Source of the DNA: a virus
Direction: 5' to 3' (one strand)
Length of the DNA stretch: 64,000 nucleotides
IMG/VR virus record: IMGVR_UViG_3300023502_000001
Coordinates: 35,960-99,959 of that record
This document shows, in pieces, positions 3,989 to 56,519 of the stretch. The position numbers and the translations under genes are program-made. The first letter of the stretch is position 1. Every line of letters starts with the position of its first letter. The notes beneath the pieces were generated by a model. It was not told the origin of the DNA, searched no databases, and saw only the letters and a program-made list of their open reading frames with translations.

Positions 3989-4457
3989 CTACGACATATT
4001 TTAAGATTTCATAACTTTCTTCTAAGCCCGCCCTATCGTCTAGTAGAATATTGTAATAAGGCTTTCTAGAGTTCGGAAATAGTCTACTGCTTGTAAAAGG
4101 AGGTATAATCATATCATTAATAAGATTTCCTATCCCCATTTGGACACACTCTACTTGTTTCTCTATAATTTTATTTTCGTTTTCCTCTGTAGAAAGTAAA
4201 ATCATTTCAAAACCTAACATAGTACAACGTCTCAGTAGATTAATAACACAACTATAATCTCCTCCAGTATTATGATAGTCGAAGATAGTGTTATCAAAGT
4301 CGAAAGCGACTATTAGCTTTCCGTATTTCTTATACTCTTCTAATAGTCGCTTCTTACAAGCCTCTTTTCCAAATGGATGGTTAAAACTTTCCATGTAATC
4401 CATTATTAATTCTTTGCCTGATATCCTGTAGAGAATACTCCTTTTTAAGGATACCAT
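3966..4457 (-). CDS. HAD-superfamily phosphatase
   Basis: 163 aa; HAD motif I IVAFDFDNTIF (DxDxT). Confidence 0.65.
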   Translation of the reverse strand: MVSLKRSILYRISGKELIMDYMESFNHPFGKEACKKRLLEEYKKYGKLIVAFDFDNTIFDYHNTGGDYSCVINLLRRCTMLGFEMILLSTEENENKIIEKQVECVQMGIGNLINDMIIPPFTSSRLFPNSRKPYYNILLDDRAGLEESYEILKYVVDEIIKLN

Positions 4458-5943
4458 CTTCGAACACAGCCTCTAAACAGCCTCCCTCTTCTACTTCAGG
4501 ACTTACTTGGTCTTCCGCGTAGTAGACACCGTTGACATCCTGATAAACGGCAATTAACCCTTTCAAAGAGTTCTTAGTCCCATCATCAGTTTTCGGATGT
4601 TTAAAGATTTCCTTCAATTCTCCATTGATTACACAAGCAGTAGCCTTAACTGCAAAGCCTAGACTATCTCTACTTGCATACTGATATGAGAATGAACCAA
4701 CACCAAGAACAAGATTACAAGCTGCCATATGAGCATTTTCAAGTCTCATGTAGATTTGTTTCTGACGCTCTAAAGTAATAGAATCGCCATATAACAAGCC
4801 TATCTTAGTACTCGGATAACGATAGTCCTTGGAAGTAGTATTCCAGCCGAATATCTTACCAAGCATATAGTATGCTCCGTAATATTGACCTTCTGATACT
4901 TCTACGTATTCTGCATCGTCATTAAACGGAGCATAACAGCAGTAGTATTTACCTTCCTTTATTCTTGTATTGAAATGAGGATTAGTTCTCAAACCACAAA
5001 TAATATCTACCGGGTCTCCACTATCGGGACGAATAACTACACGACCGTCACGAGCCATAATGTCTTTCTTCAACTTAGGAAGGAAGTTTTCAACAACATT
5101 CCAGAAATCCCAAGTATCGGACACTATAGAAACAAACCCAGTAGGATATAACTCATTAATAAGACGTTTATATGTTCCTAACTCGTCCTCTTCTCCTCCT
5201 GCACACATTACCGAATGTTCAGTAGCCGGAACAGTAGCAGCAATTAATTCACTATCCGAATTAGCTCCATAATACTCTTCAAGAGCTGCAATAGCAGGAA
5301 TAGTTTCACTTCCTACAAATGAAGTCATATGAGCCATACCAGAAATAACAGATGCTTCCAAACCAGCCATTCCTCTCATAGAGAAGTCATGACACAAGAA
5401 ATCCAGGTTTACATCCTCCGGAAATCCAGTGTGTACTGAGTGTCTTTTGAGTTCTTTCTTATAGAGTCTTGCTCTAGTGGCAGAGGTACAAGGCATCCAC
5501 AAAGTACAACTAATCAAAGTCTCTAGATAATTAGTTAACCAAAAGAACTCTGGTTTCGTATTAGTAATAGTCATCATAGGAACTCTAATAGGACATACTG
5601 AACCTTCTGGCAACGCTTTAATACGAATAGGGAGATATCCTAAATCATACAAAGCCTCAATATGTCTATATCCCACGGACTCAATTCCAACGAAGTTGTG
5701 GACTCTCCGATAAAACATTTCTATAGCTTTCTCTTTAGGCAATACAAAGAAATTCTTATTAAATTCGTCGATCAAATACTTTTTAATTAAATATTGGATT
5801 CCGAATACTACAGAACCTTCGGTAGCTTCTGGAAAGTACTTGTTACTTCTCGGAGTCCAGTTACTATAAACTTGTTCAGTACCTTCTGGGTACATCCTGT
5901 GATGGCCTAATTTGTAACCATCTGTTGCATTAATTATTTCCAT
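4381..5943 (-). CDS. nicotinamide phosphoribosyltransferase family protein (NadV/Namat-like)
   Basis: 520 aa; N-terminal ATDGYKLGHH resembles the NAMPT DSYK motif region; size matches NAMPT. Confidence 0.75.
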   Translation of the reverse strand: MEIINATDGYKLGHHRMYPEGTEQVYSNWTPRSNKYFPEATEGSVVFGIQYLIKKYLIDEFNKNFFVLPKEKAIEMFYRRVHNFVGIESVGYRHIEALYDLGYLPIRIKALPEGSVCPIRVPMMTITNTKPEFFWLTNYLETLISCTLWMPCTSATRARLYKKELKRHSVHTGFPEDVNLDFLCHDFSMRGMAGLEASVISGMAHMTSFVGSETIPAIAALEEYYGANSDSELIAATVPATEHSVMCAGGEEDELGTYKRLINELYPTGFVSIVSDTWDFWNVVENFLPKLKKDIMARDGRVVIRPDSGDPVDIICGLRTNPHFNTRIKEGKYYCCYAPFNDDAEYVEVSEGQYYGAYYMLGKIFGWNTTSKDYRYPSTKIGLLYGDSITLERQKQIYMRLENAHMAACNLVLGVGSFSYQYASRDSLGFAVKATACVINGELKEIFKHPKTDDGTKNSLKGLIAVYQDVNGVYYAEDQVSPEVEEGGCLEAVFEDGILKKEYSLQDIRQRINNGLHGKF

Positions 5944-7074: not shown

Positions 7075-7899
7075 TTATTTCCCAGCTACATCCTTAAATA
7101 AGGTAGGAACAGTACCATAAGTAGGCAGTTTTCCATCCCACTTCTCCACAAAATTCTGTTGTACAATCAATGCAGATAAGGAAGCTGCAATCTTTCTGTT
7201 ATACTCAGCTTCTGCGTCTCCCTTAATTTTCAGAGCCTGAGCTGCTCCCTCTGCTTGGGCTACAGCCTTTTTAGCATTAGCTTCTACAGATTTAACCTCA
7301 TTTTCTATCTTAAGAGCATCCTGCACCGCTTTATTTTTAGCATCAATAGCATCTACTAGTGTCTTAGGATATTGAAGACCAGAAGTTAGCTGCTCAAGTT
7401 GGAAGTTTTCGGCAAGTAATTCTTTGCTTAATCTATCTTCTATAGATTTCTCAAACTCTTCTCTTTTGCTAACTAATTCATCAGTAGTATAATTATTAAG
7501 TTGTATACGGAATGCGTTTTTAACATAGTTATATAATGTAGTATTTACGACATCAAGTATATTGTCTTTTCTGTATTTCTTAAATACCTCAGGTGACTTT
7601 CCATCAACTATCTTAAGAGATATAGTAGGGTCAACAGTAAATGACGAACCATCCTTAGCGTTAATAGAAAAAGCCTCATAGTCCACAGTAAGCACATAGG
7701 TTGGGTATTCATATACAGCTGTGGTAATTGGATTATACCAAACAGCCCCCGTGACCAATGAGATGTCATCTACTCCTTTACCATCACCGTAAAGATTTAC
7801 CTTGATTCCTTCATGTCCAGCGTCTACCCGCTCGTAGCCGCAACTTGACAAACCAAATACTAGAGTTAATACACACAGAAACTTAATTATTGTCTTCAT
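7075..7899 (-). CDS. SPFH/band-7 family lipoprotein
   Basis: 274 aa; lipoprotein signal ...LVFGLSSCG; C-terminal Ala/Glu/Lys-rich helix typical of prohibitin/stomatin-like proteins. Confidence 0.6.
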   Translation of the reverse strand: MKTIIKFLCVLTLVFGLSSCGYERVDAGHEGIKVNLYGDGKGVDDISLVTGAVWYNPITTAVYEYPTYVLTVDYEAFSINAKDGSSFTVDPTISLKIVDGKSPEVFKKYRKDNILDVVNTTLYNYVKNAFRIQLNNYTTDELVSKREEFEKSIEDRLSKELLAENFQLEQLTSGLQYPKTLVDAIDAKNKAVQDALKIENEVKSVEANAKKAVAQAEGAAQALKIKGDAEAEYNRKIAASLSALIVQQNFVEKWDGKLPTYGTVPTLFKDVAGK

Positions 7900-9371: not shown

Positions 9372-9806
9372 TTAATCCCACCAAGTTCTCATACGCTCAA
9401 ACTTAAGTTTGTTGTACAAGTACCAGGATTTTTCTCTTCTCAAAGAATCTTGGAGAATAGGTTCGCTCCAATCGAGATCAGCAGCTTTAGGACGGAATCG
9501 TTTCCAATTCTTAATGTTTATGTGCCTATCTACAAATCCTTTAGACCTAGGTCTGAAATCACAGTGGTAGGCAGAATCTATCTCTAACACAATGTCCAAG
9601 AGTCCTAGTGCTAGTTTTAGATCCCTTTCAACAAATTCATTACCTTCAGCAATTCTGGATACTTTGAAATATTCATACATCCTGATTAAGGCTTGCTTCT
9701 CTAGTGAGAGCACGAAACTATAATCAAACGGATAGAACTTCATAGCCTCTTTAATGAGCTTCTTGTTCTTACTCTTTCTTAGTTTCATATTCTTGACTTG
9801 CTTCAA
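9372..9806 (-). CDS. hypothetical protein
   Basis: 144-aa ORF. Confidence 0.55.
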   Translation of the reverse strand: MKQVKNMKLRKSKNKKLIKEAMKFYPFDYSFVLSLEKQALIRMYEYFKVSRIAEGNEFVERDLKLALGLLDIVLEIDSAYHCDFRPRSKGFVDRHINIKNWKRFRPKAADLDWSEPILQDSLRREKSWYLYNKLKFERMRTWWD

Positions 9807-10227
9807 CTGCTAATTTATCTGCGAGATTATTCATCTGAGAAAAGAAATCAGAATTGGAGGTATGTCCTTTTACCCAACAAAAGTTTATACTAGGACAGAA
9901 TTTTTCTGCCTTTTCTAAAACCTTGTCATACAAATTCCATAGTTCCACATTCTTTTTCCTTTTCCATCCTTTAGTAGCACATCCTATAACGTACTGAGAA
10001 TCTGAATAGATAGTAAGAGATTTAAGTTGACTGCTTACTGCATTAAGGGCATATATTACTGCTAACAACTCACATTTGTTATTAGTAGTATTAGGAATCA
10101 TTTTGCTAAATTCATAGACTTTTTCTCCATCAATTACAAATACGACTCCTACCCCTCCAGTGTTTCTAGACGAACTAAAAGCTCCATCAGTGAAGACTTC
10201 TAGAACCTTATTGGATTTCTCCATCAC
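9769..10227 (-). CDS. rnhA: ribonuclease H
   Basis: 152 aa; RNase HI motifs TDGAF, NNKCELLAVIYAL, YSDSQYV, KGHTSNSDFFSQMNNLADKLA. Confidence 0.75.
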   Translation of the reverse strand: MMEKSNKVLEVFTDGAFSSSRNTGGVGVVFVIDGEKVYEFSKMIPNTTNNKCELLAVIYALNAVSSQLKSLTIYSDSQYVIGCATKGWKRKKNVELWNLYDKVLEKAEKFCPSINFCWVKGHTSNSDFFSQMNNLADKLAVEASQEYETKKE

Positions 10228-13882: not shown

Positions 13883-14377
13883 TTATTTACCTATGTTCTT
13901 GCCACGGTAGTTATCAGTAAAAGCATGACAATTTGGACAGAGTAGTTGTAAATTCTCTATTCTCAAATCATCCTTAATACCATTTACATGATGTAATTCT
14001 AGAGCAATAGGTTTACCCATCCACTCTGTATTACCACAACATTCACATTTGTACTCTTTCACACATTCCTTTAACAATCTGTCTTTTAAATGATAGGTAC
14101 TTCTATAGGAAGAGTGCTCTATTAAAATAGATTCTAACGATTGTGCTTCCTTTATAGGTTTATATCTATCTCCTTGATTCCAAGCTTGTCCAGTCATGTG
14201 AGATGTATCTAAGTTAAGTTCACTAATCTTACGCTTTACAGTTTCATAGTTACTGCCAGCAGGTTTAAGTCCTAACTTTCTCATTACTTCTGCATGAGAT
14301 AGGCTAGTCTTTACTGCTTCAATGAATTGTTCGTCTGTCCATTTTCTCTTACTCATCCTTGTATATTTAATACACAA
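13883..14377 (-). CDS. HNH endonuclease
   Basis: 164 aa; C-terminal HNH motif ...LELHHVNGIKDD...LCPNCH. Confidence 0.7.
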   Translation of the reverse strand: MCIKYTRMSKRKWTDEQFIEAVKTSLSHAEVMRKLGLKPAGSNYETVKRKISELNLDTSHMTGQAWNQGDRYKPIKEAQSLESILIEHSSYRSTYHLKDRLLKECVKEYKCECCGNTEWMGKPIALELHHVNGIKDDLRIENLQLLCPNCHAFTDNYRGKNIGK

Positions 14378-18966: not shown

Positions 18967-19183
18967 CTTTAATTCCTAGATAATCCTTTAATAATTGAAT
19001 GTTTCCTTCTCTCAAATGCCGAATAAAAGCCTCCCTTTCTCTCTCAAATAGCAGAATTTTACTCTCTAACAGGTCTATTCGTCTTTGTTGATTTTCCTCG
19101 TATTCTTCAATAGCGTCAGAAATTGCTTTAAGTATAGAAGATTCCTTCATAGCGCTACTCATTGTAGAACTCTTCGTCCCCAT
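18959..19183 (-). CDS. hypothetical protein
   Basis: 74-aa ORF. Confidence 0.45.
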   Translation of the reverse strand: MGTKSSTMSSAMKESSILKAISDAIEEYEENQQRRIDLLESKILLFEREREAFIRHLREGNIQLLKDYLGIKDE

Positions 19184-19580
19184 TATCGTCGCCTATAGGA
19201 TTCTCCCATCCATACTTTACAGCAGTAGCCTTAAACAAAGGCAACCCATACATAGCATAATTCTCTTCAGGATAATTCTCTAAGCCCTCTTCTAGAACTT
19301 GATTCCACCTTAGTACCACGTAGAACATTAGGCTAGCTGAAATGCCTCTCTGGTCTAGAGCCTTCTCAAAACCAAACTCCACGTCAGACTTAAGTTGCTC
19401 TAGGATATTCTCTCTAGTCCATTCCTTAGGCTCTGGATAAGGCTCATCACCATCGTACTTGAAGCCTATTTTTTCTAACTGCTCTTCTGTTAAAAACTTT
19501 GCTAATCTAGAACCGAAACGGTCATCGAGAACTACGGCATAGTCTTTGTAATTGTCTAAAATCTCATTTAACGTTTTCAT
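19155..19580 (-). CDS. hypothetical acidic protein
   Basis: 141-aa ORF. Confidence 0.55.
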   Translation of the reverse strand: MKTLNEILDNYKDYAVVLDDRFGSRLAKFLTEEQLEKIGFKYDGDEPYPEPKEWTRENILEQLKSDVEFGFEKALDQRGISASLMFYVVLRWNQVLEEGLENYPEENYAMYGLPLFKATAVKYGWENPIGDDNGDEEFYNE

Positions 19581-20036: not shown

Positions 20037-20711
20037 CTACTGCACAATCAAGCTATAAGCTTCTTGCAACAGTTTAATAGTTGGAACCATACGGTTATCA
20101 ACAACTATTATTTTATAAATGTTCAGAATTTCTTTGTAGGTTAAAGATGTACAAGTTAGAAATATCTGCACATCTTCGTTTACAGAACCATTTGACAATC
20201 CCAAATCTACTTTAATCATACTGGGTAATGTTCCAATCTGAGAAATATCCCAAGTAGATTTAGTTCTCCTGAAAACTTCCCGCTGTTTGGAGGTAAGTTG
20301 CTTTTCTTTCAATCTAGACTCGATAATAGTACCATCGAACGTTAACGAACCTCCATCGGTATTACTATTATTTAATGCTAGCTGAATCTTCTGAACTGCA
20401 GAGTCTTTAGGTTTTGGCTTAAGTTGTACTCCTTCCTTCAAGCCCTTAATAATCTGCAATGAAGGAATAAAGTCTTTTATTTGAGTTGCATTCCATACAA
20501 GAAATTTTCCAGGACTATCCTTAACAGTAACTATATACTTAGTCCCTCCGTTCAATGGAATAATCACTTGTAAGTCTGCATCACTCATTTTACTTAAATG
20601 GTCTGATACTCTAACTTTGACGTTTCCAATGACAAAGTAGCGAGAAACAGTTGTTTCCGCTTCGATAATCTCAGTAGCAGTTGCTACTAAATACTTTTCT
20701 AATCTAGTCAT
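20037..20711 (-). CDS. hypothetical protein
   Basis: 224-aa ORF. Confidence 0.6.
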   Translation of the reverse strand: MTRLEKYLVATATEIIEAETTVSRYFVIGNVKVRVSDHLSKMSDADLQVIIPLNGGTKYIVTVKDSPGKFLVWNATQIKDFIPSLQIIKGLKEGVQLKPKPKDSAVQKIQLALNNSNTDGGSLTFDGTIIESRLKEKQLTSKQREVFRRTKSTWDISQIGTLPSMIKVDLGLSNGSVNEDVQIFLTCTSLTYKEILNIYKIIVVDNRMVPTIKLLQEAYSLIVQ

Positions 20712-20938: not shown

Positions 20939-21490
20939 TTACTCCAGACTAATTAAACCCTTCTCTAACATAATATGGTGATTCGGACATAACCATACTA
21001 AATTATTCTCGTTGTTAATCTCCTTAATAAGAGTGTCTTCGTCAAATTCTAATATTCCTTTAAGATGATGTACTTCAAGTATTGCATCAAATTCATGATT
21101 ATGACAATATTGACATACTTTCTCACGTTCGGAACTTTCTAATACTCTACGAGCATTAGTCCTTATTTCTTGACATTTAGATGATAAGTACTTCTGCCCA
21201 GATGTATAATAACCTAATGTTTTGTTACCAATTCCATTAAGTTCTTCCCAGCAACTACGACACATTTCTGAATCTTTATGCTTAGGTTTACCACATCTAG
21301 GACATATCTTGTTTTCATCGTGCTTTATCCTACCTCTATTATTGTAAGAAGCAGCACACGAATGACTACAAAACTGTTTCTTCCTCACATCTGCGACCCT
21401 CTGATTATCTAGTACTTCGATTACCTTACCACATTCCTTACAGTGGTTAGGATTCTCATAATACAATTTAAGAGATTGTTCTCGATTCAC
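20939..21490 (-). CDS. HNH endonuclease
   Basis: 183 aa; zinc-binding CxxC pairs and HNH motif ...EVHHLKG...NLVWLCPNHH. Confidence 0.7.
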   Translation of the reverse strand: MNREQSLKLYYENPNHCKECGKVIEVLDNQRVADVRKKQFCSHSCAASYNNRGRIKHDENKICPRCGKPKHKDSEMCRSCWEELNGIGNKTLGYYTSGQKYLSSKCQEIRTNARRVLESSEREKVCQYCHNHEFDAILEVHHLKGILEFDEDTLIKEINNENNLVWLCPNHHIMLEKGLISLE

Positions 21491-21627
21491 AGATAAGTTT
21501 AATTAATTTTAATGACAGTGTGATATGCAAGCCATTACACCACAGCCTCGAAAATGCAGGTATTTATCTCGTTACACCTGCGAGTCCGGCAATCCTTTCT
21601 TATATACCGCGTGAGCTGGCGGTTTTG

Positions 21628-21701
21628 TAGGGCTAATCAGACTTGAACTGATAACCTCCACATTATCAGTGTGGTGCTCTAACCAGTTGAGCTATAGCCC
21701 T
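21628..21701 (-). tRNA. tRNA-Ile(GAT)
   Basis: acceptor AGGGCTA/TAGCCCT, D-arm GCTCAACTGGTTAGAGC, anticodon stem CCACA/TGTGG, loop CTGATAA. Confidence 0.65.
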
Positions 21702-21707
21702 ATTATG

Positions 21708-22269
21708 TGGACCTAACGGGAGTCGAACCCGTGTCCAAACAACCCTCGTTACAAGGATAACGTGCGTCTCATTTTTATTATATCAGCTAGGGAGTTCTAG
21801 CATTTAGGTAGTTTTATAAGTCTTACAAGAGTCCATACTAAGTATTTCTCTAGATGCTTATCTACAAGCTACCAAACTATAGGGCTGACCGAAGTCAACG
21901 TTCCACCACTCCATTTACGTTGGAGAACGGGATGATACTTTAGAGATTCGTCACATCTCACGGAACACATCTTCCATCTGTTTTATGACATAGGAGATTC
22001 AGTCTTACTAACTCTTAGAGTGTTCTGATTAAGAGCATATTACTAGGATTAGAGCCTAGCTCTCCATTATATCAATATACTCAACCTCTTCTGTTTCTAG
22101 GTCTCTCCCGTAACCCGACTTAGTTAATAGTGTCTACCAACAAGCCAGCAGCTTAGGCTGCCATTCTTACTTCGCTATAAGCAGCATTTATTGTTTTTTC
22201 TTCGTTTAAAGAGATTGCGCTCTACACGTCCTTATAATTTGTAATCGCCTGTCAAATCCAAGTAGGCCC
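21708..22269 (-). ncRNA. ssrA: tmRNA (ssrA)-like
   Basis: 3' end GGACACGGGTTCGACTCCCGTTAGGTCCA closely parallels the E. coli tmRNA 3' end; 5' end GGGCCTACTTGGATTTGACAGGCG parallels GGGGCUGAUUCUGGAUUCGACGGG; acceptor GGGCCUA/UAGGUCC pairs with a G3-U70 (Ala identity); a possible tag ORF ends ...MAA-TAA. About 560 nt, longer than typical. Confidence 0.6.
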
Positions 22270-22309
22270 ATACCCAGTTTATCTTTAATTAGAAAACTGG
22301 AAAAAGAAA

Positions 22310-22561
22310 TTATAACATTATAGTTGTACCCTCAGGTAGTGTCCGTAACTTAGTATTAGTATAGTCTCTAGCACCCTTACTAAATATCTCAGGATAGTAA
22401 GAACAACTTCCTAATATAAATAGTGCAAGTCCACATCTTTGAATTATATCTCCGTTAGATACTGTTCCATCCTCAAACCATTCTATCACTTCTGCAAATT
22501 CCCCATCCTTTAGGTCTTTAAGTTGGATTATATCAGAGGCCCTATTTACTACTTTTGCCAT
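22310..22561 (-). CDS. hypothetical protein
   Basis: 83-aa ORF. Confidence 0.45.
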   Translation of the reverse strand: MAKVVNRASDIIQLKDLKDGEFAEVIEWFEDGTVSNGDIIQRCGLALFILGSCSYYPEIFSKGARDYTNTKLRTLPEGTTIML

Positions 22562-23123
22562 AAATACATTGTTTGATTATGTCTTTAGTAATTATTCCAC
22601 TATCACGAGTAAGAGAATCTAGTTTCTCTATATCAAACTCGTCTTTATGAAATTTGAATTGAATCCACGTTGGTTCACTTGGTCTGAAATCTAGATAAGT
22701 CTTACACTTGTCAGTTCCTAACACTTCATGCACCATAGCTAGAATACGCTCACCAGCAGCTTTGGTCTTTACAAAGCCAGAAACATCTGGATAGCCAGGA
22801 CCACGAGAGTTCCAATATTCTCCTTCTTCTGGACGTTCGTCAACTGGTTCCCAATTCCATGCAGGAATACCTTTTCTAGGATGTTCAATTCTGATTGCGC
22901 TTTCCATAACCCATTTAGATTTCGGGTCTGAGGGATTTTCTGGATGGCAGCCATATTTGACTATTCCCATTGGATTTTCGCTTCTAACTTCAAATTTTAA
23001 CTTGCAATGTCTACAAGTTCCAGATGTTAGACCTCCTCCAGAAACTCCACTACTTATAACAGAATCGCACCCACAATTAGGACAACCCCACAGCTCATAT
23101 TCGCTATATAATACTGATAACAT
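22542..23123 (-). CDS. hypothetical protein with N-terminal zinc-ribbon
   Basis: 193 aa; CPNCGC...CRHC. Confidence 0.55.
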   Translation of the reverse strand: MLSVLYSEYELWGCPNCGCDSVISSGVSGGGLTSGTCRHCKLKFEVRSENPMGIVKYGCHPENPSDPKSKWVMESAIRIEHPRKGIPAWNWEPVDERPEEGEYWNSRGPGYPDVSGFVKTKAAGERILAMVHEVLGTDKCKTYLDFRPSEPTWIQFKFHKDEFDIEKLDSLTRDSGIITKDIIKQCIYGKSSK

Positions 23124-24154: not shown

Positions 24155-24227
24155 TGGACACGCAGGGACTCGAACCCTATCTTCCGGTGTGCAAAACCAG
24201 CGCTCTAGCCATTTGAGCTAACGGCCC
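24155..24227 (-). tRNA. tRNA-Ala(TGC)-like (weak acceptor stem but G3-U70 present)
   Basis: D-arm GCTCAAATGGCTAGAGC, anticodon stem CTGGT/ACCGG, loop TTTGCAC; acceptor GGGCCGT vs CGTGTCC pairs only 4/7. Confidence 0.45.
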
Positions 24228-25780: not shown

Positions 25781-26529
25781 TGCGGAGGTAGGATTATTTC
25801 CAAATAAATTTATATGCAGTTTTCAATTTCCCTTTTACACATAAACTAATCTTCTAGCGAACACCTCCATTATAAGTTTTAGCATAGCCATTGTCTACTA
25901 ACCAGTGTGCAGCATCGGCTATACTGTTCCAAGTCCTGATAAAGTTATTATTTAAATCATACTGAGATATTGATACAGGTTGCTTGCAACTTCCCAAATA
26001 AAATTTGTTCTTTGGTATATTGTTTATATTTATTACTTTAGAAACTGTATCAACAGAACATTGCATTTTGGCGGAAACTTCAATCATTGTCATTCCGCTA
26101 GTATATAAAGATATTATTTCTTTATAATCGAATAAGATAGCTCCATCGCCTCCCATAGTAGCATTATAGCCATTTGAGTATGTGTCTAGCTTATCTATAA
26201 ATTGAATTTCATAAGAAGCTAATTCCTCATCATCACATTCATACAGCTACTCAACTATGAAATTCTCAACCCCGTACTTATTCATAGCATCATATAGCGG
26301 CCTCTTTTCACATCTTTCCTTCTTGCAATCATTACAATGTTCTTTAAATCTCTTAGTTACAGAATAAGTAGTTTTTCCAACATACTATTTTCCATTAATT
26401 AAATTTGTAATACAATAAATATATCCCATGTTCTATTCTTATTTAAAATTAAACATATTAGTAAGATTAGCGTTATCCAACTCACACCACGTGGAGGTTC
26501 TTACTTGCGAGTCTTGCGGAGGTAGGATT
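25781..26529 (-). mobile_element. GIY-YIG homing-endonuclease cassette flanked by 16-nt direct repeats (ttgcggaggtaggatt) matching the 3' end of the adjacent tRNA
   Basis: direct repeats at 25781-25796 and 26514-26529; shares cacaccacgtggaggtt with the cassette at 13.0-13.75 kb. Confidence 0.5.
25854..26429 (-). CDS. GIY-YIG homing endonuclease (TAG-recoded)
   Basis: track ORF 25854..26156 extends upstream through 2 in-frame TAGs to MGYIYCITNLINGKQYVGKT...KRFKEH...NKYG (GIY-YIG motifs); about 191 aa. Confidence 0.7.
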
Positions 26530-26677: not shown

Positions 26678-26758
26678 TTCCGATTAAAGGATTTGAACCC
26701 CTGACCTCCCGCTGATGTTTTGGATGCGGACGCTCTAACCAGACTGAGCTAAATCGGA
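26678..26758 (-). tRNA. tRNA-Trp(CCA)-like with expanded 13-nt anticodon loop
   Basis: good acceptor TCCGATT/AATCGGA, D-arm TAGCTCAGTCTGGTTAGAGC and T-arm, but anticodon stem TCCGC/GCGGG encloses ATCCAAAACATCA. Confidence 0.35.
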
Positions 26759-26952: not shown

Positions 26953-27297
26953 CTACGAATGTAGTAATTCTTGGGCTTCAATTTCGCCAATTATTTTAGT
27001 AAGTGCGATCTTGAATGGATTTCCCTTGATTTTGTCGAAGAGATTGGCATCGCGTACCTCCTCAACTTTGTCTGGAACATTCAATTTTCTTTTACCGTTG
27101 TCTACGGTTTTCCATGTGATAACTGTGCAACGCTTCACGTCATAAACGCTGTCGTTGCGGTCAACGAACACCTTGAAGAAGTTTCTTTTGTGCTTTACTA
27201 CCTCAACTCTTTTAAAGTTTTTGATAGGTGCGTGCATTTTCAAGTCACATCTTCCATTAGCTAAGAAAATCAATTCTGCCATAATAATACTCTGCAT
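26953..27297 (-). CDS. hypothetical protein
   Basis: 114-aa ORF. Confidence 0.5.
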   Translation of the reverse strand: MQSIIMAELIFLANGRCDLKMHAPIKNFKRVEVVKHKRNFFKVFVDRNDSVYDVKRCTVITWKTVDNGKRKLNVPDKVEEVRDANLFDKIKGNPFKIALTKIIGEIEAQELLHS

Positions 27298-35958: not shown

Positions 35959-35964
35959 ATCAAA

Positions 35965-41962: not shown

Positions 41963-42454
41963 CTACTCGTTTATCAGAGAGTTGCTAAAAATGCAGAGCA
42001 GGCAGTCAATTAGTTCTCCGAAACCTATTCCCTGATGATCGTTCTTCAGTTCGTCTGGAATCCAGTACAAAGCCTTTATCAGTTGCTGTATTTGAAGAGC
42101 ATCGAAAGTTATGTCCCCGGCACTCTCTGCTTCTTCCAATATCTCTATGAAAGCCTCCATAGCAAAACAGCTAGCGTGAGAAAAGTGGTGAATGTTTCCA
42201 TTCTTCTTCTTAAACAAAACGCCACGTTCGTCCGAGCCTATCACTCTGTCCTTGTTGCGGAACAACATTTCCATACAGGCATCGATTCTCATTCGTAATG
42301 CTTTGATGCACACCTCTCGCCATGCCATAACTACTTCATGCGGGCTGTAGCACTTGGCCTGCGACGTTGGATCTTCAACTGCTTTGAAAGGAATAGTAAA
42401 CGACATTACGAATTCTGCGCGCTTGTTTACATGATCTAATGCTAATGTATTCAT
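41963..42454 (-). CDS. hypothetical protein
   Basis: 163-aa ORF. Confidence 0.55.
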   Translation of the reverse strand: MNTLALDHVNKRAEFVMSFTIPFKAVEDPTSQAKCYSPHEVVMAWREVCIKALRMRIDACMEMLFRNKDRVIGSDERGVLFKKKNGNIHHFSHASCFAMEAFIEILEEAESAGDITFDALQIQQLIKALYWIPDELKNDHQGIGFGELIDCLLCIFSNSLINE

Positions 42455-42848: not shown

Positions 42849-43136
42849 GTAACGGTTGTTCTTATCTTGGGAGTAGGAGACCTAAGTCTCCCAGTATGCA
42901 CAATTGTTTCTCAACAACCTGCACCACTATGTACGATAAAAGAAGATGAATTATCCTGTGCCTACAATCATTTAAGATTGTCTTCGATTGTTAGTACAAT
43001 CTCACAATACTTTGCCTTATCTCACGATAAGACACCTCTATTCATAAGAGATGCTCTGCATTAGTCTCAGGGCGTACCCATTATAATCTTTAACTGCAAC
43101 AGAGTCTACAAGTAGTTGTAGTCCTCAAATACCAAG

Positions 43137-43207
43137 TTCCCCATTCTGGACTCGAACCAGAATCTCCTTCTTTAGAGGAAGGCGCAATAGCATTATACTA
43201 ATGGGGA
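43137..43207 (-). tRNA. atypical tRNA-like gene (anticodon loop CTAAAGA, reads AAA), possible pseudogene
   Basis: acceptor TCCCCAT/ATGGGGA and T-arm TCTGGTTCGAGTCCAGA are good; D-arm weak; A34 is unusual. Confidence 0.3.
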
Positions 43208-43929
43208 AATCCTATCTTGACAACTAGTATAAGATAGGAGATTATTTAGTATGTTTTCCAGACATACAACGTTATCAACGTTCACTAAATTCTGAGGTAG
43301 CTAATCTCAAAACTTGCGAATAGATTCGAGATGGAAAATGACGCCTTATGAGCGTCTCTCTTACTATCTAGCCTATATCTATCTGATGGCTTACTTCAGG
43401 CAACTTCCAATATTGCATACGAATACTTATAGGTGATATACTTTGGTCTACCAGCATATCAGTGGTACTTTGTAATATTGCCATAAGTGACCATTCATAT
43501 GGCTCAATCCTCTTGTAATAGTGTTCAAGTTTGCGAATATACACATTACAATCGTAGCAGTTATTTTCGGATATTGGGTTCTTCTGCGTAACCCGCTTTT
43601 TGTTACCTTTTTATAGGCAAATGTTAGAGTAAATAATCATTGTAGTATGTGTTATAAAACTCATCCTACTGGCGATTTTTTGAGAACTGGAGAAAGTCGG
43701 AAAATCGGCTGTCTTTTGCGTGGACAATTTCTCTCAGCCCTTACCATATTTTCACGTGCAACAATAGTCCCAATCTACATTAGAACCACATTACTTAATA
43801 TAATACTAAAATAAAATAACTACGACGAATTGATTTTGAAGTTTTTGTTTTGTTTTGTTGTTTTCTCCGTTAACCAATGGTCCGATGATGGAGTTCATGT
43901 GGGTATCTTATTTTGAAACCCATAATACC

Positions 43930-45598: not shown

Positions 45599-45670
45599 TG
45601 CCCTATGGTGTAATGGTCAGCACAGATGACTCTAAATCATTTAGTCTGGGTTCGAATCCTAGTAGGGCAA
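45599..45670 (+). tRNA. suppressor tRNA, anticodon CTA (reads TAG), Gln-derived
   Basis: hand fold: acceptor TGCCCTA/TAGGGCA, discriminator A, D-arm GTGTAATGGTCAGCAC, anticodon stem GATGA/TCATT, loop CTCTAAA (C34 T35 A36), T-arm CTGGGTTCGAATCCTAG; near-identical architecture to tRNA-Gln(TTG) at 30395..30466. Confidence 0.75.
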
Positions 45671-45687
45671 CTCCAAAATTAATAGCT

Positions 45688-51226: not shown

Positions 51227-51817
51227 ATGAATGTATTTAACTATAACACTTTAACTAAATAGTTAGAAATAAATGAACCAGAGATTCTTCTAGTTAAAGA
51301 GTTCAAAGCTTTACTACAAAGAGATAAATCTGTGGAAAAGGATAGAGCAATTAGAGAACTATCATACATTTATTTAGCTATTGATTGGAAGAGTCCGTAT
51401 AGCTAGTACTCTGAATATGAAAGGCACGATGAAGCAATTAATGATTCTGGATTAACAGAATCAGAATTTAATGATCCGATATTTAGGGAAGCATGTAGAA
51501 AATATAGAGCATTATAGGACTCAAATAAATCAATTAAATTATTAGAAGCTGCTAGAAGAGCTGCTGACTAGTTTATTGATTACTTCGATACTATTGTAGA
51601 CTTAAATGAACGTGACACTAATGGAAAGCCAGTATTCTCTGCTGAGAAAGTAATGAAGGAAATGGCTAGCCTTCATAAAGTTCACGAAGAATTAATTACA
51701 TTAGAAGATGAGGTTAAAAAAGAACTTACTGAATAGTCTACCGTTAGAGGAGGGGCTACAGATGGTTTTGATCCCGGAGAATTTTAATTATGCCAAGAAA
51801 GAAAAAGATATTACCTG
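51227..51817 (+). CDS. hypothetical protein, possible terminase small subunit by position (TAG-recoded)
   Basis: about 196 codons, 4 in-frame TAGs, ends TGA; directly precedes the terminase large subunit. Confidence 0.45.
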
Positions 51818-54150
51818 ATGAACTATAGACTATAGTAGATTAGGTAAGAGAAAAAGAACATAAAGAAGATGCTGTAGAGGCAAGAGAGCTAGTATAGAAA
51901 ATAAGAGAAGAAAGGGTCAAAAGTGCAGACTATTGGGATGTCAAGAAAGGAGACAAGATAGATGTTTTTGACCCTACTTTGTCTTATGAGATAACTGGCT
52001 ATAGACCTATTGATGAAACGCATGGTTTGGACTTTAATCCCGAATGGTTCACCGAAACCAGAGAAGTATACAGAAAGACTGGGAAGTATTGTCCCTACTT
52101 AAAAGACAGTAAGAGATACAATGAATTTTGGAAAGAGTAGTACAGAAGATGTAAATATGGAATGACAGTTAATGGTTATACTATTACTGGAGATAACTAT
52201 TTCTTCTTAAATTTCTATTAGCTTCCTATTATTGATGATAATAAAGCATCCGGTGAAGGAACTAATAGTGACTTCCCTATATTCTTTGCATCCCATTACA
52301 TGTTCTTCCATTACTTACAAATGGCTAGAGTACTACATAGACATGCAGCTTTAATGAAGGCTCGTTCAATCGGATTCTCAGAAATAAATGCCTCACTATC
52401 CGCTCGTATGTATTCTGTAATTAGAAGAAGTAGAGTAATGATTACTTGCTTTAATGATACCTTCCTTAAAGGTACATTTAGTAAGTTTGATAATGCTCTA
52501 ACATTTTTAAATACTTGCACAGGTGGAGGATTCTTTAAGCTTCGTCTAATTGACCAGGATTTAAGAAAGAAGTCTGGTAAGTAGGTTAAAGTAAACGGAT
52601 AGTTTGAAGATGTTGGATTTAAATCAGAAGTAGTAGGAATAAATGGAGCTAAACCATCTAATATTCGTGGAGACCGTGTTGACTTATTAATATATGATGA
52701 AGCAGGGTCTTGGCCAGGATTAGATACTGCTGTGGTACAAGGACAAGAACTTTGTGAAGTCTAGGGTAAGCCTCGTGGAACAATGTTGTTTGGAGGTACT
52801 GGTGGTGATATGGGTGCTCCATTAGCAGGTCTTAAAAAGATTTACTATAATCCAAAAGCTTACAAAGTTCTTCCCTTTAGACATAATTATACTCAAGATG
52901 GGACTACTATTGAGAGTGGATTCTTTATTCCATATTTTGTACAGTCTTTGAACTCCGAATACATGGATCATAGAGGTGTATGTAATACCGTAGAATATAA
53001 GAAGTATCTGTAGGAAGAAAGAGATAATCTATTAGCAGTACCCGATGACTATTTAAAGAAGTGTGCTGAACGTTGTTGGAATGCAGAAGAGGCCTTCAAT
53101 CTAGAAGGTGTTAACAAGTTTAACAAAATTCTTATTTCTGATCAATTAGCTAATATAAGACTAAAGAAAATAGGTCCCAGACCAGAATGTGGTTATATAG
53201 ATTACTTCTATAAAAATAATAAACACACTGCTGATAACATTGATGGATTTAAGTGGATTCCTAATACTAAGGGAAAGGTAAAGATTCTGGAACATCCAGT
53301 ATGGTCTGACCTATATAAGGAGTAGATGGATAAACTTAGATAGGAAGCAGAGGAAAGAGGAGAGGAATTTGAAGCACCTGTATATAAAGAAATGCATAAT
53401 CTTTATATTGCAGGAATAGACGGTATTGATATAGGAGCTAATTAGACCTCAAAGGAAACTAAAGATCCTTCTGACTTCTGTATAACTATTAAGAGAAGGG
53501 CATTTGGTATGAGTGAGCCATAGTATGTAGCAATGTATAAGGACAGACCTGGAGACATTCGAGAGGCTTACAAAATAGCTATGTGTTTACTTAGATACTA
53601 CAACTGTAAGGTAAATATAGAAGCAACCCGTGTTGGTATGATTACCTGGGCTAGAGAAAAGAAATGTTTGAATTACTTTATGAAACGTCCTAGAGCTACT
53701 CTTACTGATGTTAAAAATGGAACTACTAAATAGTATGGAACTCCAGCTACTAAAACTATTATAGAACAACACACTGATCTAACTGCTGCGTTTGTGGAAG
53801 ATTATTGTCATACTATATGGTTTGAAGAAATGTTGGAATAGCTTACTGGATATAATGACGAGAATAAAGGTAAGTTCGATATTATAGCAGCTATGGGTAT
53901 GACAGAATTAGCAGATGAAGAGTTGTCTGGAAGATAGCCTATAGTTGTGGAAAAAGAAGTTGAATTGTTCAGGGATTTTGGTTATTATTACGATGAGAGA
54001 GGAATAAAAAGATTTGGAGTTATACCAACTAGCGAAACTCCAGAATTAAATATGCAAGACGACGAATACGATGACCCATACAGAATTGAAACAAGTGATC
54101 CTAGAGTATATGAGAGACTTATACCAAATGGAATATATAGGCGGACTTGA
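51790..54150 (+). CDS. terL: terminase large subunit (TAG-recoded)
   Basis: about 786 codons in one frame joining track ORFs 52300..52584, 52783..53013, 53533..53733 and 53947..54150 through in-frame TAGs; ATPase-like RGDRVDLLIYDEAGSW and nuclease-like LYIAGIDGIDIG / DIIAAMGM segments. Confidence 0.6.
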
Positions 54151-54347: not shown

Positions 54348-56519
54348 ATGAAAGAGAAAGAATTGATAGACAAAACAAACGAGGCTATTGCGGAACTTGT
54401 GTATGATAAATATGAGCTTTAGAAAGCTTATAATTATTATAATGGTAAAAGAGATCCAGAATAGTTTCGCTATCTTGAAGAGAATTTTGGAATAGGCAGT
54501 CCTACATCAGTAGAATTTACACCACTACTTAAGAAGCATGTAGATGCTTTAGTAGGGGAATATCTAGGAACTCCAATACTCCCGAAAGTCTCTTGCAAAG
54601 ATTCAGATACTATCAGTAATATAACCAGAGAAAAATAGCTAGAGATAACTAAAGGAATAGTTAAGTTTTTAAAAGATCACTTAAGTAATGCTATCTTAAG
54701 CTTTATTGACGGAAAAGATATTACTGATAAAGCTGTAAAGACTCAGCTAGATAAGGTTATATAGGATATTGATTAGTCATTCATTTCTCAGTATGAAATT
54801 GCTGCGCAGAACATTATTCACTACCTAATGCAATCTAGGGAAACTGATCTTATTACTAAGTTGCGGTAGTTATTAACTGACTTACTAATTACTGGATACA
54901 CATTCTTTAGAGTAAAGTCTTCTTTCTCCGGAACTAATGTGGAGATAGAGGTTCTTAACCCGTTAAATACGTTTGTTGATAGAAATCCAGAATCTCCATA
55001 TGTCAAGAAATCATATAGAGTTGTTATTAGAAAATGGATGAGTAAAAGCCAAATACTAGCTAAGTATGGTAAAGAAATATCTAGAGAAGACTTAAAGAGG
55101 TTAAAAGATGAATGGAGAGCAGATGATTCTGCTGCTGTATACAGAAGAGTTTATGGAGATGTTTGTACAGTGGTTAATGAAGATCAAAATCATGAGACCA
55201 TTCCTGGGTATCCAGATAATGAATATAGTGCTCATAGATTTTAGTTAATTCCGGTCTACGATGTAGAGTGGATAGAGACTGATGATGATTTCAAAATGCA
55301 GAGATACAATACTATAAGGATAGGAGAGGAAATCTATATTCTTAGAGGATTAGACAAGACTGCAATGAGGTCTAAAGACGATCCTAACTCTTGTTCATTA
55401 TCAGTAAATGGAGTTTATTTTCTAAATCGTTCTCAGTAGCCATATTCTTTAATACTTAAGTGTGCACATCTACAGGATAGATATGACTTACTTAACTACT
55501 ACAGAGACAACTTGATAGCTAATAGTGGAACCTCAGGAGTTATTATGGATATGTCATTACTTCCTACTAACTTAGGAGTGCATTGGCCAGAAAGAGTATA
55601 GAAATGGTTAGCTTATAAAAAGGGTGGTATTATGTGGATTGATTCCACTTAGGAAGGAAGAAATGATGGAGCGCAGGCACCTAACTAGATATACAATGGA
55701 TTTGATGATACCCTTAAAGCGTAGGCTGTATAGGCTATTGAGTTAGCTATTCAATCAGTAGAATAGACTACATCATCTATAACTGGAGTATTTAGGGAAA
55801 GACTTAATGGAATAGAGACTCATGATGCTGTAACTAATATTAAGCAAGGAGTAGCTAATTCTTATATAGTAACTAAACACTACTTCCAACAAATGGATTT
55901 AATAACTTGTGAGATATTGTTGGATAGTCTTAATCAGGCTAAAGTAACTTACAAGAAAGGATTAACTGGAACCATTATATTAGGAGACAAGTATTAGCAG
56001 ATATTTACTGCACTTCCTGAATATTTCACAATGACTGATTTTGATATTCATATAACCTCTAGCACTGAAGTTATGGAAGATCTATAGACTATTAAAGCTA
56101 TGATTCCAGAGTTCCTTAAGAGTTAGTAGATGGATGCTGGTATAGTTTTTGAAGCATTAACAGCTAAGAGTTTAACAGACTTAAAGTATAAGGTTAAGAA
56201 AGCTATGTAGGTTTAGAAGGAAGAGAACAATCAATTACAATAGTTGTAGCAGAAGTTGGAGGAAACTTCATAGCAAGCACAACAATTACAATAGGAATTA
56301 GAAAAAGCTTAGTAGAAAATAGAGAGGTTAGATGAACAAAAACTTGGACTAGAGCAATAGAAAATGCAACTCGAATACAAGGTTAATTGGCTTAAAGCCC
56401 AATCAGATTCTACTTATAAAGATAGACAAATGGATATTGAAGAGAAGAGAACTGAAATAGAATTAGCATAGCTTCATGATGGAAATCCATATAACGATAA
56501 AATAAGACAAATACATTAA
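54348..56519 (+). CDS. portal protein (putative, by size and position; TAG-recoded)
   Basis: about 723 codons in the frame of track ORF 54939..55244, many in-frame TAGs, ends TAA; follows terL. Confidence 0.45.

Follow-up and report, generated by a model that had tools for sequence, protein, structure and literature searches.

The window analysed here, by which we mean the whole stretch of 64,000 nucleotides (nt) from IMG/VR virus record IMGVR_UViG_3300023502_000001 (positions 35,960 to 99,959), carries a gene for a transfer-messenger RNA (tmRNA) at 21708–22269 on its minus strand. Covariance modelling and comparison with relatives confirm the predicted gene as a phage-encoded, one-piece tmRNA gene of unusual length. 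RNA position p corresponds to window coordinate 22270 − p, and in the order of the RNA the gene is laid out as follows.

21708–22269, minus strand: complete one-piece tmRNA gene, 562 nt (match to RF00023; called by ARAGORN after internal deletion; 41 distinct relatives)
22263–22269, minus strand: 5′ strand of acceptor stem P1, GGGCCUA, holding G3 of the G3·U70 pair; pairs with 21709–21715
22224–22251, minus strand: 5′ strand of connector helix P2 (RNA 19–46), pairing with RNA 505–534
22210–22223, minus strand: hairpin AGAG-CGCAAU-CUCU (RNA 47–60), placed by cmscan at the model's first pseudoknot (PK1)
22153–22185, minus strand: tag frame, with resume codon GCU at RNA 85, peptide AAYSEVRMAA and stop UAA at RNA 115–117 (ARAGORN on a shortened construct; conserved in 41 relatives)
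22149–22160, minus strand: hairpin P5, CAGC-CUAA-GCUG (RNA 110–121), with the tag stop in its loop; 100% paired in relatives
21786–22146, minus strand: expanded structured domain, downstream of the tag and upstream of the 3′ strand of P2 (RNA 124–484, 361 nt; cmscan, module lengths and covariation)
21736–21765, minus strand: 3′ strand of P2 (RNA 505–534; folding and alignment)
21708–21732, minus strand: T-arm ACGGG-UUCGACU-CCCGU (RNA 538–554), acceptor 3′ strand UAGGUCC (RNA 555–561) and A562 (cmscan alignment)

In a search of the whole window, the Rfam tmRNA model RF00023 matches 21705–22269 of the minus strand from end to end (model positions 1–374), scoring 61.2 bits against a gathering score of 47 (E = 1.7e-21). 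An initial annotation, made from the letters of the window, had placed a tmRNA of about 560 nt here; its coordinates, strand and quoted sequences proved exact on re-extraction, its identification is borne out by the full-length match, and the length measures 562 nt. The gene begins with GGGCCUACUUGGAUUUGACAGGCG at 22269 and ends with ACGGGUUCGACUCCCGUUAGGUCCA at 21708. All seven pairs of the acceptor stem proposed in that annotation can be read from the sequence (G1-C, G2-C, G3·U, C4-G, C5-G, U6-A and A7-U), with A as the discriminator. The 3′-terminal CCA is not encoded, the sequence running ..GGUCCA and then CAU, and none of 41 relatives encodes it (0/41); an encoded CCA is not universal among tmRNA genes (PMC11915505). 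Judged by sequence, then, the gene is a tmRNA, recognised by the curated model and showing five testable defining features. A permuted, two-piece tmRNA was considered and rejected, the permuted model reaching only 19.7 bits against a cut-off of 47. The earlier reservation that the true 5′ end might differ falls away because the full model matches and both P1 and P2 covary in the relatives; within 900 nt of the 3′ end the one at 562 is the sole candidate 5′ partner, with none nearer.

Relatives were gathered from viral contigs. An exact search with the 3′-terminal 29-mer found 33 contigs, most of 95–192 kb; pattern scans, including the 15-mers TGGATTTGACAGGCG and TAGAAACAGAAGAGG (with many unrelated contigs among the matches listed), followed by an nhmmer profile filter, gave at least 49 complete copies, at least 41 of them distinct, of 514–601 nt and down to 65% identity. 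The 41 distinct relatives come mostly from viral contigs of 60–200 kb, the contigs ranging up to 192 kb with single ones of 202 and 270 kb. Two further copies (L095 and L267) were left out because our end-finding rule assigned them no ends. The G3·U70 pair was a requirement of end-finding in all 41 and is not independent evidence there; it is invariant in the 22 close relatives. Among 12 divergent relatives, 11 reach the RF00023 threshold with 47.8–96.4 bits, and one (L211) falls below it.

The tRNA-like domain and the helix that joins it to the rest of the molecule are maintained by paired changes. In a MAFFT alignment of the 41 relatives, P1 (RNA 1–7 with 555–561) is 96.9% paired, with compensatory changes at 2/7 pairs and covariation at positions 5–7; the 22 close relatives show no variation in it. 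The T stem reaches 100% pairing (compensatory changes at 3/5 pairs) and its loop is uninterrupted in the cmscan alignment. A D-loop-like UGGAUUUGAC precedes the 5′ strand of P2, whose segments P2a to P2c are 97.5–100% paired, P2a at 97.5% with compensatory changes at 7/9 pairs and P2b at 100% with 5/9. The hairpin at the PK1 position is invariant in 41/41 relatives, an invariance that leaves no covariation there. An A-rich leader separates it from the resume codon, and a 20-nt linker lies between the end of the expanded domain (RNA 484) and the 3′ strand of P2. A hand-specified structure scored over the 22 close relatives is 95.1% paired, against 34–45% when the partners are slid, and has 51 cells changed on both sides, a result reached by 0/500 shuffles. 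An all-against-all helix search on the same 22-sequence alignment was too noisy, most columns being invariant, and was replaced by this hand-specified structure with its controls and by the anchored module tests described below. To judge from these patterns, the tRNA-like part, the connector helix and the tag frame are under purifying selection.

The tag frame reads GCU GCU UAU AGC GAA GUA AGA AUG GCA GCC UAA (RNA 85–117). It is the frame AAYSEVRMAA-UAA of the initial annotation, and ARAGORN, applied to a shortened construct, returns the same frame at 85–117. U(−5) and A(−4) before the resume codon are kept in 41/41 relatives, together with an Ala or Gly resume codon, and in 41/41 the frame is open and ends in [V/Y/N][R/K]MAA, with TAA as the stop in 38, TGA in 3 and TAG in none. 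Changes within the frame are synonymous or conservative (GCC/GCG/GCU; AGA/AAA/AAG). Tags that begin with alanine are AAYSEVRMAA, ATYSEVRMAA, AEIAPVRMAA, AERSD[V/Y]RMAA, ATTSVRMAA and AEIDYNRMAA; those with a glycine resume codon are GNTEVRMAA, GNTTYRMAA, GNTRVKMAA and GNTEVKMAA. The native Bacteroides tag is GETNYALAA, which strongly destabilises proteins (bioRxiv 10.1101/2025.03.18.644028). In length and start the glycine-type phage tags agree with it, a likeness suggesting that they descend from a Bacteroidota tmRNA; the RMAA ending is, on this comparison, the phage family's own. Tag modules appear to recombine, because in one relative (L007:794–1354) the alternative tag AEIAPVRMAA goes with a backbone that shares 97% identity with window 21708–22269.

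The excess length falls entirely into the interval from the tag to the 3′ strand of P2, where cmscan places 213 nt against 26 in the model, plus smaller inserts. The resulting post-tag domain is about twice the usual size and has at least eight helices, several with covariation support. Its parts are these.

22117–22146, minus strand: module Ha (RNA 124–153), a nested hairpin GGCU/AGUC around GUUGGUA/UAUUAAC (alignment)
22084–22103, minus strand: purine-rich anchor GACCUAGAAACAGAAGAGGU (RNA 167–186), identical in 40/41 distinct members
22033–22083, minus strand: module V1 (RNA 187–237), a long hairpin with base 188–197/228–237 and tip CUAGG/CCUAG; 28–76 nt in relatives
21930–21992, minus strand: module V2 (RNA 278–340), containing hairpin GAGAU/AUCUC; 28–64 nt in relatives
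21879–21929, minus strand: module B3 (RNA 341–368), hairpin CUCCA/UGGAG, 93.7% paired with compensatory changes at 2/5 pairs, together with module V3 (RNA 369–391), GUUGAC-UUCG-GUCAGC, 20–61 nt in relatives
21786–21878, minus strand: module V4 (RNA 392–468), closing helix GGUAG/CUACC around a variable branch, 75–101 nt in relatives, together with the last hairpin GCUAG/CUAGC (RNA 469–484)

When the alignment of the 41 is cut at conserved anchors, nine segments are near-constant in length and four modules (V1 to V4) vary, each forming a stem-loop at the same anchored place in each clade despite differing sequence. V1 is the clearest case: in 22/22 distinct sequences the anchored ends close into a helix of 5–11 base pairs (bp), for which at least eight unrelated sequences are employed; shuffles equal these helices in only 0–55 of 2000 trials, and compensatory pairs are also present. 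At the position of the V2 hairpin another clade has GUGGU/ACCAC, and in L018 and L004, relatives from different clades, what look like independent deletions have each removed a short segment at a shared position in V2, covering the 3′ half of one small hairpin. The B3 hairpin is replaced by CCUACUUU/AAAGUAGG in another clade, and V3 folds as a hairpin in minimum free energy (MFE) folds of 6/6 clade representatives. The closing helix of V4 is 99% paired, with compensatory changes at 2/5 pairs; by inspection, V4 in two clades can form an H-type pseudoknot in which both stems differ between the clades (GGAGG/CCUCU with GCUGG/CCAGC in one, AAGCGGA/UCCGCUU with GCUAGAU/AUCUAGC in the other). Outside the variable modules, Ha is 100% paired in the 22 close relatives, with AU-to-GC covariation at one pair, and its outer stem is 100% paired in 41/41. 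Whole-domain MFE folds of the clade representatives gave inconsistent long-range pairings and were not used, and a search by eye for pseudoknot partners of the V1 loop, the B2 segment, the GGAGA/UCUCC motifs and the anchor GACCUAGAAACAGAAGAGGU gave several 4–5-bp candidates, none with convincing covariation.

The modules combine as mosaics: L273 has a long V1 and a long V2 (601 nt in total), L283 and L298 a long V3, and L294 short forms of V1, V2 and V3. The sum of the module minima is still ~490 nt. Because the four modules vary independently, the nine segments keep their length and the V1 helix forms at fixed anchors, the ~200 additional nt are best described, from the alignment, as lineage-specific stem-loop expansions of the region that normally holds pseudoknots PK2 to PK4, and not as one insertion. 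The suggestion that the gene may carry an insertion is thus not upheld, the excess being spread over four independently varying modules and the smallest relative still measuring 514 nt.

The length also accounts for the silence of the standard gene finder. ARAGORN reports 27 tRNAs in the native window and no tmRNA; after removal of at least 160 nt from the middle of the gene it calls a tmRNA with the same ends and the tag AAYSEVRMAA* at 85–117. Relatives of 515 nt are called as they stand, and the calls stop once these are padded beyond ~520 nt. The failure is due to length alone. Of the two gene-finding searches that the initial annotation had named, Infernal with RF00023 was thus positive outright, while ARAGORN was negative on the native sequence and positive once this was shortened.

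An intron would be another way to make a tmRNA gene this long: a molecule of normal size split by a self-splicing intron or other excised sequence outside the T-loop would mature to ~300–400 nt. The Zeta-group crAss-like phages, to which this phage appears to belong (see below), have an unusually high intron density (PMC7886860), and although all 883 known tmRNA introns lie in the T-loop, their curators note that other sites may have been systematically missed; in the curators' intron screen, non-intron forms were filtered out by size (500-bp cut-off) combined with bit score (PMC11915505). Group I introns, like the domain described here, vary by way of conserved anchors with variable peripheral hairpins between them. 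Yet intron families give no match in the internal 381 nt at E ≤ 10, nor in a 900-nt region at E ≤ 1, and the T-loop is intact. The excess is not contiguous, the four modules that vary independently being separated by segments of constant length; a missing block is seen in 0/41 distinct relatives, of which the shortest has 514 nt; and cmscan aligns the model's PK2, PK3 and PK4 helices inside the expanded region. We consider an excised sequence highly improbable. Still harder to credit is a non-functional relic, whether a tmRNA pseudogene of host origin or an attP-type remnant of integration at a bacterial ssrA gene. Genomic islands often do integrate at tmRNA genes (PMC11915505), but the gene here is no 3′ fragment: it is full-length, with both of its ends; it stands within a tRNA array, and the conservation of the tag frame and the compensatory changes in 41 relatives bespeak purifying selection. 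In addition, the 20-mer anchor GACCUAGAAACAGAAGAGGU occurs on only two contigs among 185,579 species-representative bacterial and archaeal genomes, both of them in metagenome-assembled genomes: L195 (CALEBD010000016.1, 'uncultured Clostridium sp.', 30 kb) and L196 (CAZEMQ010000001.1, 'uncultured Muribaculaceae bacterium', 130 kb). By its gene content the 'Clostridium' contig is mis-binned phage DNA, since it carries the phage's tRNA arrangement, and the 'Muribaculaceae' contig, whose partial copy sits at the border of the retrieved locus, is probably phage as well. Among GenBank phage records, the family tmRNA was found only on two unannotated fragments.

Compared with the standard one-piece tmRNA of RF00023, as found for example in Bacteroides, the phage RNA shares the acceptor stem with G3·U70, the T-arm, the D-loop-like UGGAUUUGAC, a long P2, an Ala or Gly resume codon after U(−5)A(−4), a tag of 9–10 residues ending in AA, a stop codon in the P5 loop and a structured domain between the tag and the 3′ strand of P2. 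It differs in length (562 nt, 514–601 in the family, against 374 consensus positions in Rfam), in having at least eight helical modules after the tag in place of the three pseudoknots PK2 to PK4, in showing only a hairpin at the PK1 position and in not encoding CCA. Its tag ends in RMAA instead of the ALAA of Bacteroides, it is phage-borne within a tRNA array, and it is invisible to ARAGORN. With the two-piece permuted form it shares only the tRNA-like domain, the gene order being standard (5′ acceptor, tag, 3′ acceptor). Intron-form genes, which have a group I intron in the T-loop (PMC11915505), likewise exceed 500 bp, and the intron-rich Zeta crAss-like lineage is a further point in common; here, in contrast, the T-loop is whole, there is no group I match and the dispersed excess is never absent in relatives. 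The known phage tmRNAs (mycobacteriophage Bxz1-type, Bacillus phage G and those of 'huge phages') also occur in large phages with many tRNAs and translation genes (PMC4131195, PMC7162821). They were found with ARAGORN or BLAST, and those found by ARAGORN should be shorter than most members of the present family, which resides in crAss-type, probably Zeta-group, gut phages; we set the two apart on these attributes and not by sequence comparison. Phage tmRNAs as such are known (PMC4131195, PMC7162821), and what sets this one apart from known standard tmRNAs is the size, the number of post-tag modules, the tag ending and the invisibility to ARAGORN.

The tmRNA gene stands among tRNA genes, and the window is divided between a minus-strand early block and a plus-strand late block. 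The features on which the interpretation draws, and others of the early block, are the following.

21627–21701, minus strand: tRNA-Ile(GAU), 6 nt downstream of the tmRNA on the same strand
43136–43207, minus strand: amber suppressor tRNA (CUA) (ARAGORN and Rfam)
45599–45671, plus strand: another amber suppressor tRNA (CUA), which heads the block of TAG-recoded late genes (ARAGORN and Rfam)
26678–26758 and 24155–24227, minus strand: two tRNA-like genes beyond ARAGORN's list (Rfam tRNA model, 51.6 and 39.5 bits)
51790–54150, plus strand: large terminase (TerL)
54348–56519, plus strand: portal
19155–19580, 20037–20711, 22542–23123, 25854–26156, 26953–27297 and 41963–42454, minus strand: early open reading frames (ORFs) ending in TAG
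4381–5943, 7075–7899 and 9769–10224, minus strand: early-block ORFs for nicotinamide phosphoribosyltransferase (PHROG 448, E = 2e-180), an SPFH/Band 7 protein and RNase H

tRNA-Ile(GAU) follows the tmRNA at 6–130 nt in 28/30 loci of the window's clade; in one of the others the distance is 812 nt and in one tRNA-Asp comes next. The tmRNA and tRNA-Ile are probably co-transcribed and processed by the same enzymes. A scan for sigma-70 promoters gave one 10/12 match at 22345–22317 (minus strand), ~48 nt upstream of the tmRNA; the number of sites is not above chance, and the scan does not cover Bacteroidales promoters. A 7-bp hairpin, CCAGUUU ... AAACUGG, at 22274–22299 (minus strand) ends 4 nt before G1 of the tmRNA and may mark a processing site or be the upstream ORF's terminator.

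Depending on the method, the window holds 27–30 tRNAs. The minus-strand block, which contains the tmRNA and nearly all of them, has almost no in-frame TAG, and the plus-strand genes from ~50 kb have 13–28 in-frame TAGs each when TAG is read as sense, the TerL and portal genes among them. The position of the plus-strand suppressor at the head of this block could tie suppressor expression to late transcription. In the early block, 6/52 ORFs end in TAG, and in all six a TAA or TGA back-up stop lies 2–19 codons downstream; these early genes look buffered against amber readthrough, or else their TAGs are read as sense.

TerL is of a distant crAss type, 26% identical to those of cr1_1 and ProJPt-Bp1; its other matches are also crAss-like phages, and unannotated gut contigs reach 44–46%. 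The Zeta group is described as having crAss-type TerL and portal, genomes of 145–192 kb, many tRNAs, and a suppressor tRNA with late-gene recoding (PMC7886860, PMC12386605). Because contig sizes, tRNA number, amber suppressor and late-gene recoding match the group, the phage, a large one of the human gut, looks like a Zeta-group crAss-like phage, an assignment made by description (PMC7886860, PMC12386605) and not by phylogeny against named Zeta genomes. Neither of these two accounts mentions a tmRNA. A CCA-adding enzyme and a peptidyl-tRNA hydrolase are reported to be encoded by one Zeta-group phage (PMC12386605); our scan of window ORFs revealed no release factor, CCA-adding enzyme or inhibitor of release factor 1 (RF1).

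Other small RNAs and mobile-element genes lie in the same surroundings. A RAGATH-14 RNA (RF03145) at 43236–43408 (minus strand; 166.3 bits against 149.1) ends 29 nt upstream of the suppressor tRNA at 43136–43207. RAGATH-34 RNAs (70–121 bits) lie ~1.3–2 kb from the tmRNA in relatives (L273:3252–3359, L097:324–430, L283:6732–6831, L298:3086–3183 and L123:10331–10435), and a Hatchet ribozyme (L204:13016–13099, 81.8 bits) lies ~500 nt upstream of the tmRNA of L204; in these phages the tRNA/tmRNA region is accompanied by a cluster of ribozymes and other small structured RNAs. Two ORFs with HNH endonuclease domains in the tRNA-rich region (20939–21490 and 13883–14356, both minus strand), one of them ~140 nt downstream of tRNA-Ile, may be free-standing homing endonucleases.

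We think it likely that the gene produces a functional one-piece tmRNA with an expanded structured middle; what it would do is inferred from established tmRNA biology and from its setting. The RNA would be transcribed with the phage tRNA array of the minus strand, cut by RNase P at G1 and by a 3′ processing enzyme after A562, and given its missing CCA by a CCA-adding enzyme. Host AlaRS would charge it with alanine through G3·U70, and host EF-Tu, together with a presumed host SmpB, which accompanies tmRNA in nearly all bacteria (PMC11915505), would bring it to ribosomes stranded at a message's 3′ end, tmRNA being known to act where ribosomes have come to the end of a truncated or non-stop mRNA (PMC3985003). 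Translation would then resume at GCU (RNA 85), set by the conserved U(−5)A(−4), append the peptide (A)AAYSEVRMAA and terminate at the UAA in the P5 loop. The PK2–PK4 region is dispensable in vitro and yet aids folding and processing (PMC3985003). Because this region is dispensable for the chemistry of trans-translation while affecting folding, processing and stability, the expansions probably tune stability or the binding of partners and leave the core mechanism alone. In the infected cell, non-stop ribosomes probably build up through the decay of mRNAs and, after both suppressor tRNAs (CUA) are expressed, through readthrough of ORFs that end in UAG, and the extra tmRNA would keep ribosomes available for the translation of late genes. 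This benefit to the phage is the least certain step of the mechanism. Suppressor tRNAs do cause readthrough to the 3′ ends of mRNAs, creating tmRNA substrates, according to work (Ueda 2002) as reported in PMC3985003.

Several observations weigh against this reading. The second stem of a PK1 pseudoknot was looked for and no convincing candidate emerged, and alignment and inspection did not establish the overall pseudoknot topology of the expanded domain. Folding energies do not stand out (z = −1.7 for the whole RNA and −0.4 for the expanded domain), so the case for structure is carried by covariation alone; the V2 and V3 helices align poorly, and the anchored terminal-helix test failed on V3 and part of B3, where module boundaries shift from clade to clade, though the MFE folds do show hairpins at these places. 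SmpB was absent by tblastn and Pfam from the 64-kb window of a ~190-kb genome and from the short loci of relatives, a weak negative given that the probe was the E. coli SmpB. The phage's own TAG-ending early ORFs, with their back-up stops, would rarely yield non-stop complexes, and the burden of readthrough would therefore fall mainly on host messages. Finally, tmRNAs also occur in phages with no reported recoding, which leaves the link to recoding circumstantial (PMC4131195).

Two other roles have been weighed against the rescue of readthrough-stranded ribosomes. In the mechanism put forward by the initial annotation, the tmRNA rescues ribosomes stalled at the in-frame UAGs of late messages before the suppressor accumulates. 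The late genes, with their 13–28 in-frame UAGs each, would offer ample sites, and in recoded E. coli deleted for RF1, unassigned UAG codons are resolved partly by tmRNA (PMC6207430). That precedent, however, depends on the deletion (PMC6207430): a host with the standard code should have RF1, which terminates at UAG, so that no stall is expected, and neither an RF1 inhibitor nor a release factor gene appears among the window ORFs scanned. Tagging of premature products would, moreover, destroy them and not help. We regard this role as very unlikely; rescue of ribosomes that have read through UAG stops fits better than rescue at UAG. The other possibility is that the main role is replacement of the host degradation tag, the phage RNA outcompeting host tmRNA for SmpB and stalled ribosomes and giving products ending in RMAA and not ALAA a different proteolytic fate, or acting in part as an SmpB sponge. 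All relatives (41/41) end in [R/K]MAA, against GETNYALAA in Bacteroides, and the tags GNTEVRMAA and GNTTYRMAA share the length and initial G of the host tag yet keep RMAA, which points to selection there. A tmRNA reduced to its tRNA-like domain, like that of mycobacteriophage DS6A, inhibits host tmRNA (PMC4131195, PMC11915505). On the other side, the RMAA codons overlap the P5 helix, so that RNA structure may contribute to their conservation. The terminal AA, the main ClpX determinant, is retained, and the tag may still be a degron. Tag replacement as the main role strikes us as unlikely, if less so than rescue at UAG.

The consequences reach first to the record of phage tmRNAs. The usual phage pipelines use ARAGORN, a survey of huge phages relied on it (PMC7162821), and the main protocol of a database of 97,179 tmRNA sequences combined it with BLAST (PMC11915505). 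Because members of the family longer than ~520 nt are invisible to ARAGORN, a whole clade of tmRNAs in large gut-phage contigs may be missing from the records. The RMAA ending provides a peptide signature that can be searched for directly in gut metaproteomes, and the family itself is a natural experiment in how far a pseudoknot-rich region can expand and reshuffle while the tRNA-like and mRNA-like parts stay fixed.

For the biology of these phages, the presence of a tmRNA with amber suppressors in a code-switching phage leads to a concrete hypothesis on how such a phage copes with genome-wide readthrough; our searches turned up no published work on tmRNA together with stop-codon recoding, though such work may exist. 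In its broadest and quite speculative form, which we offer as a tentative extension, an abundant lineage of human-gut phages would have evolved the largest standard-form tmRNAs known, with a degron ending of their own, RMAA, as an integral part of its recoding programme. If this is true, the suppressors would make TAG a sense codon, UAG-ended host and early messages would be read through and ribosomes would pile up at their 3′ ends; the tmRNA would recycle these stranded ribosomes for the late genes and label the aberrant products with a tag specific to the phage, and its expanded domain would serve as a platform for stability or for phage partners.

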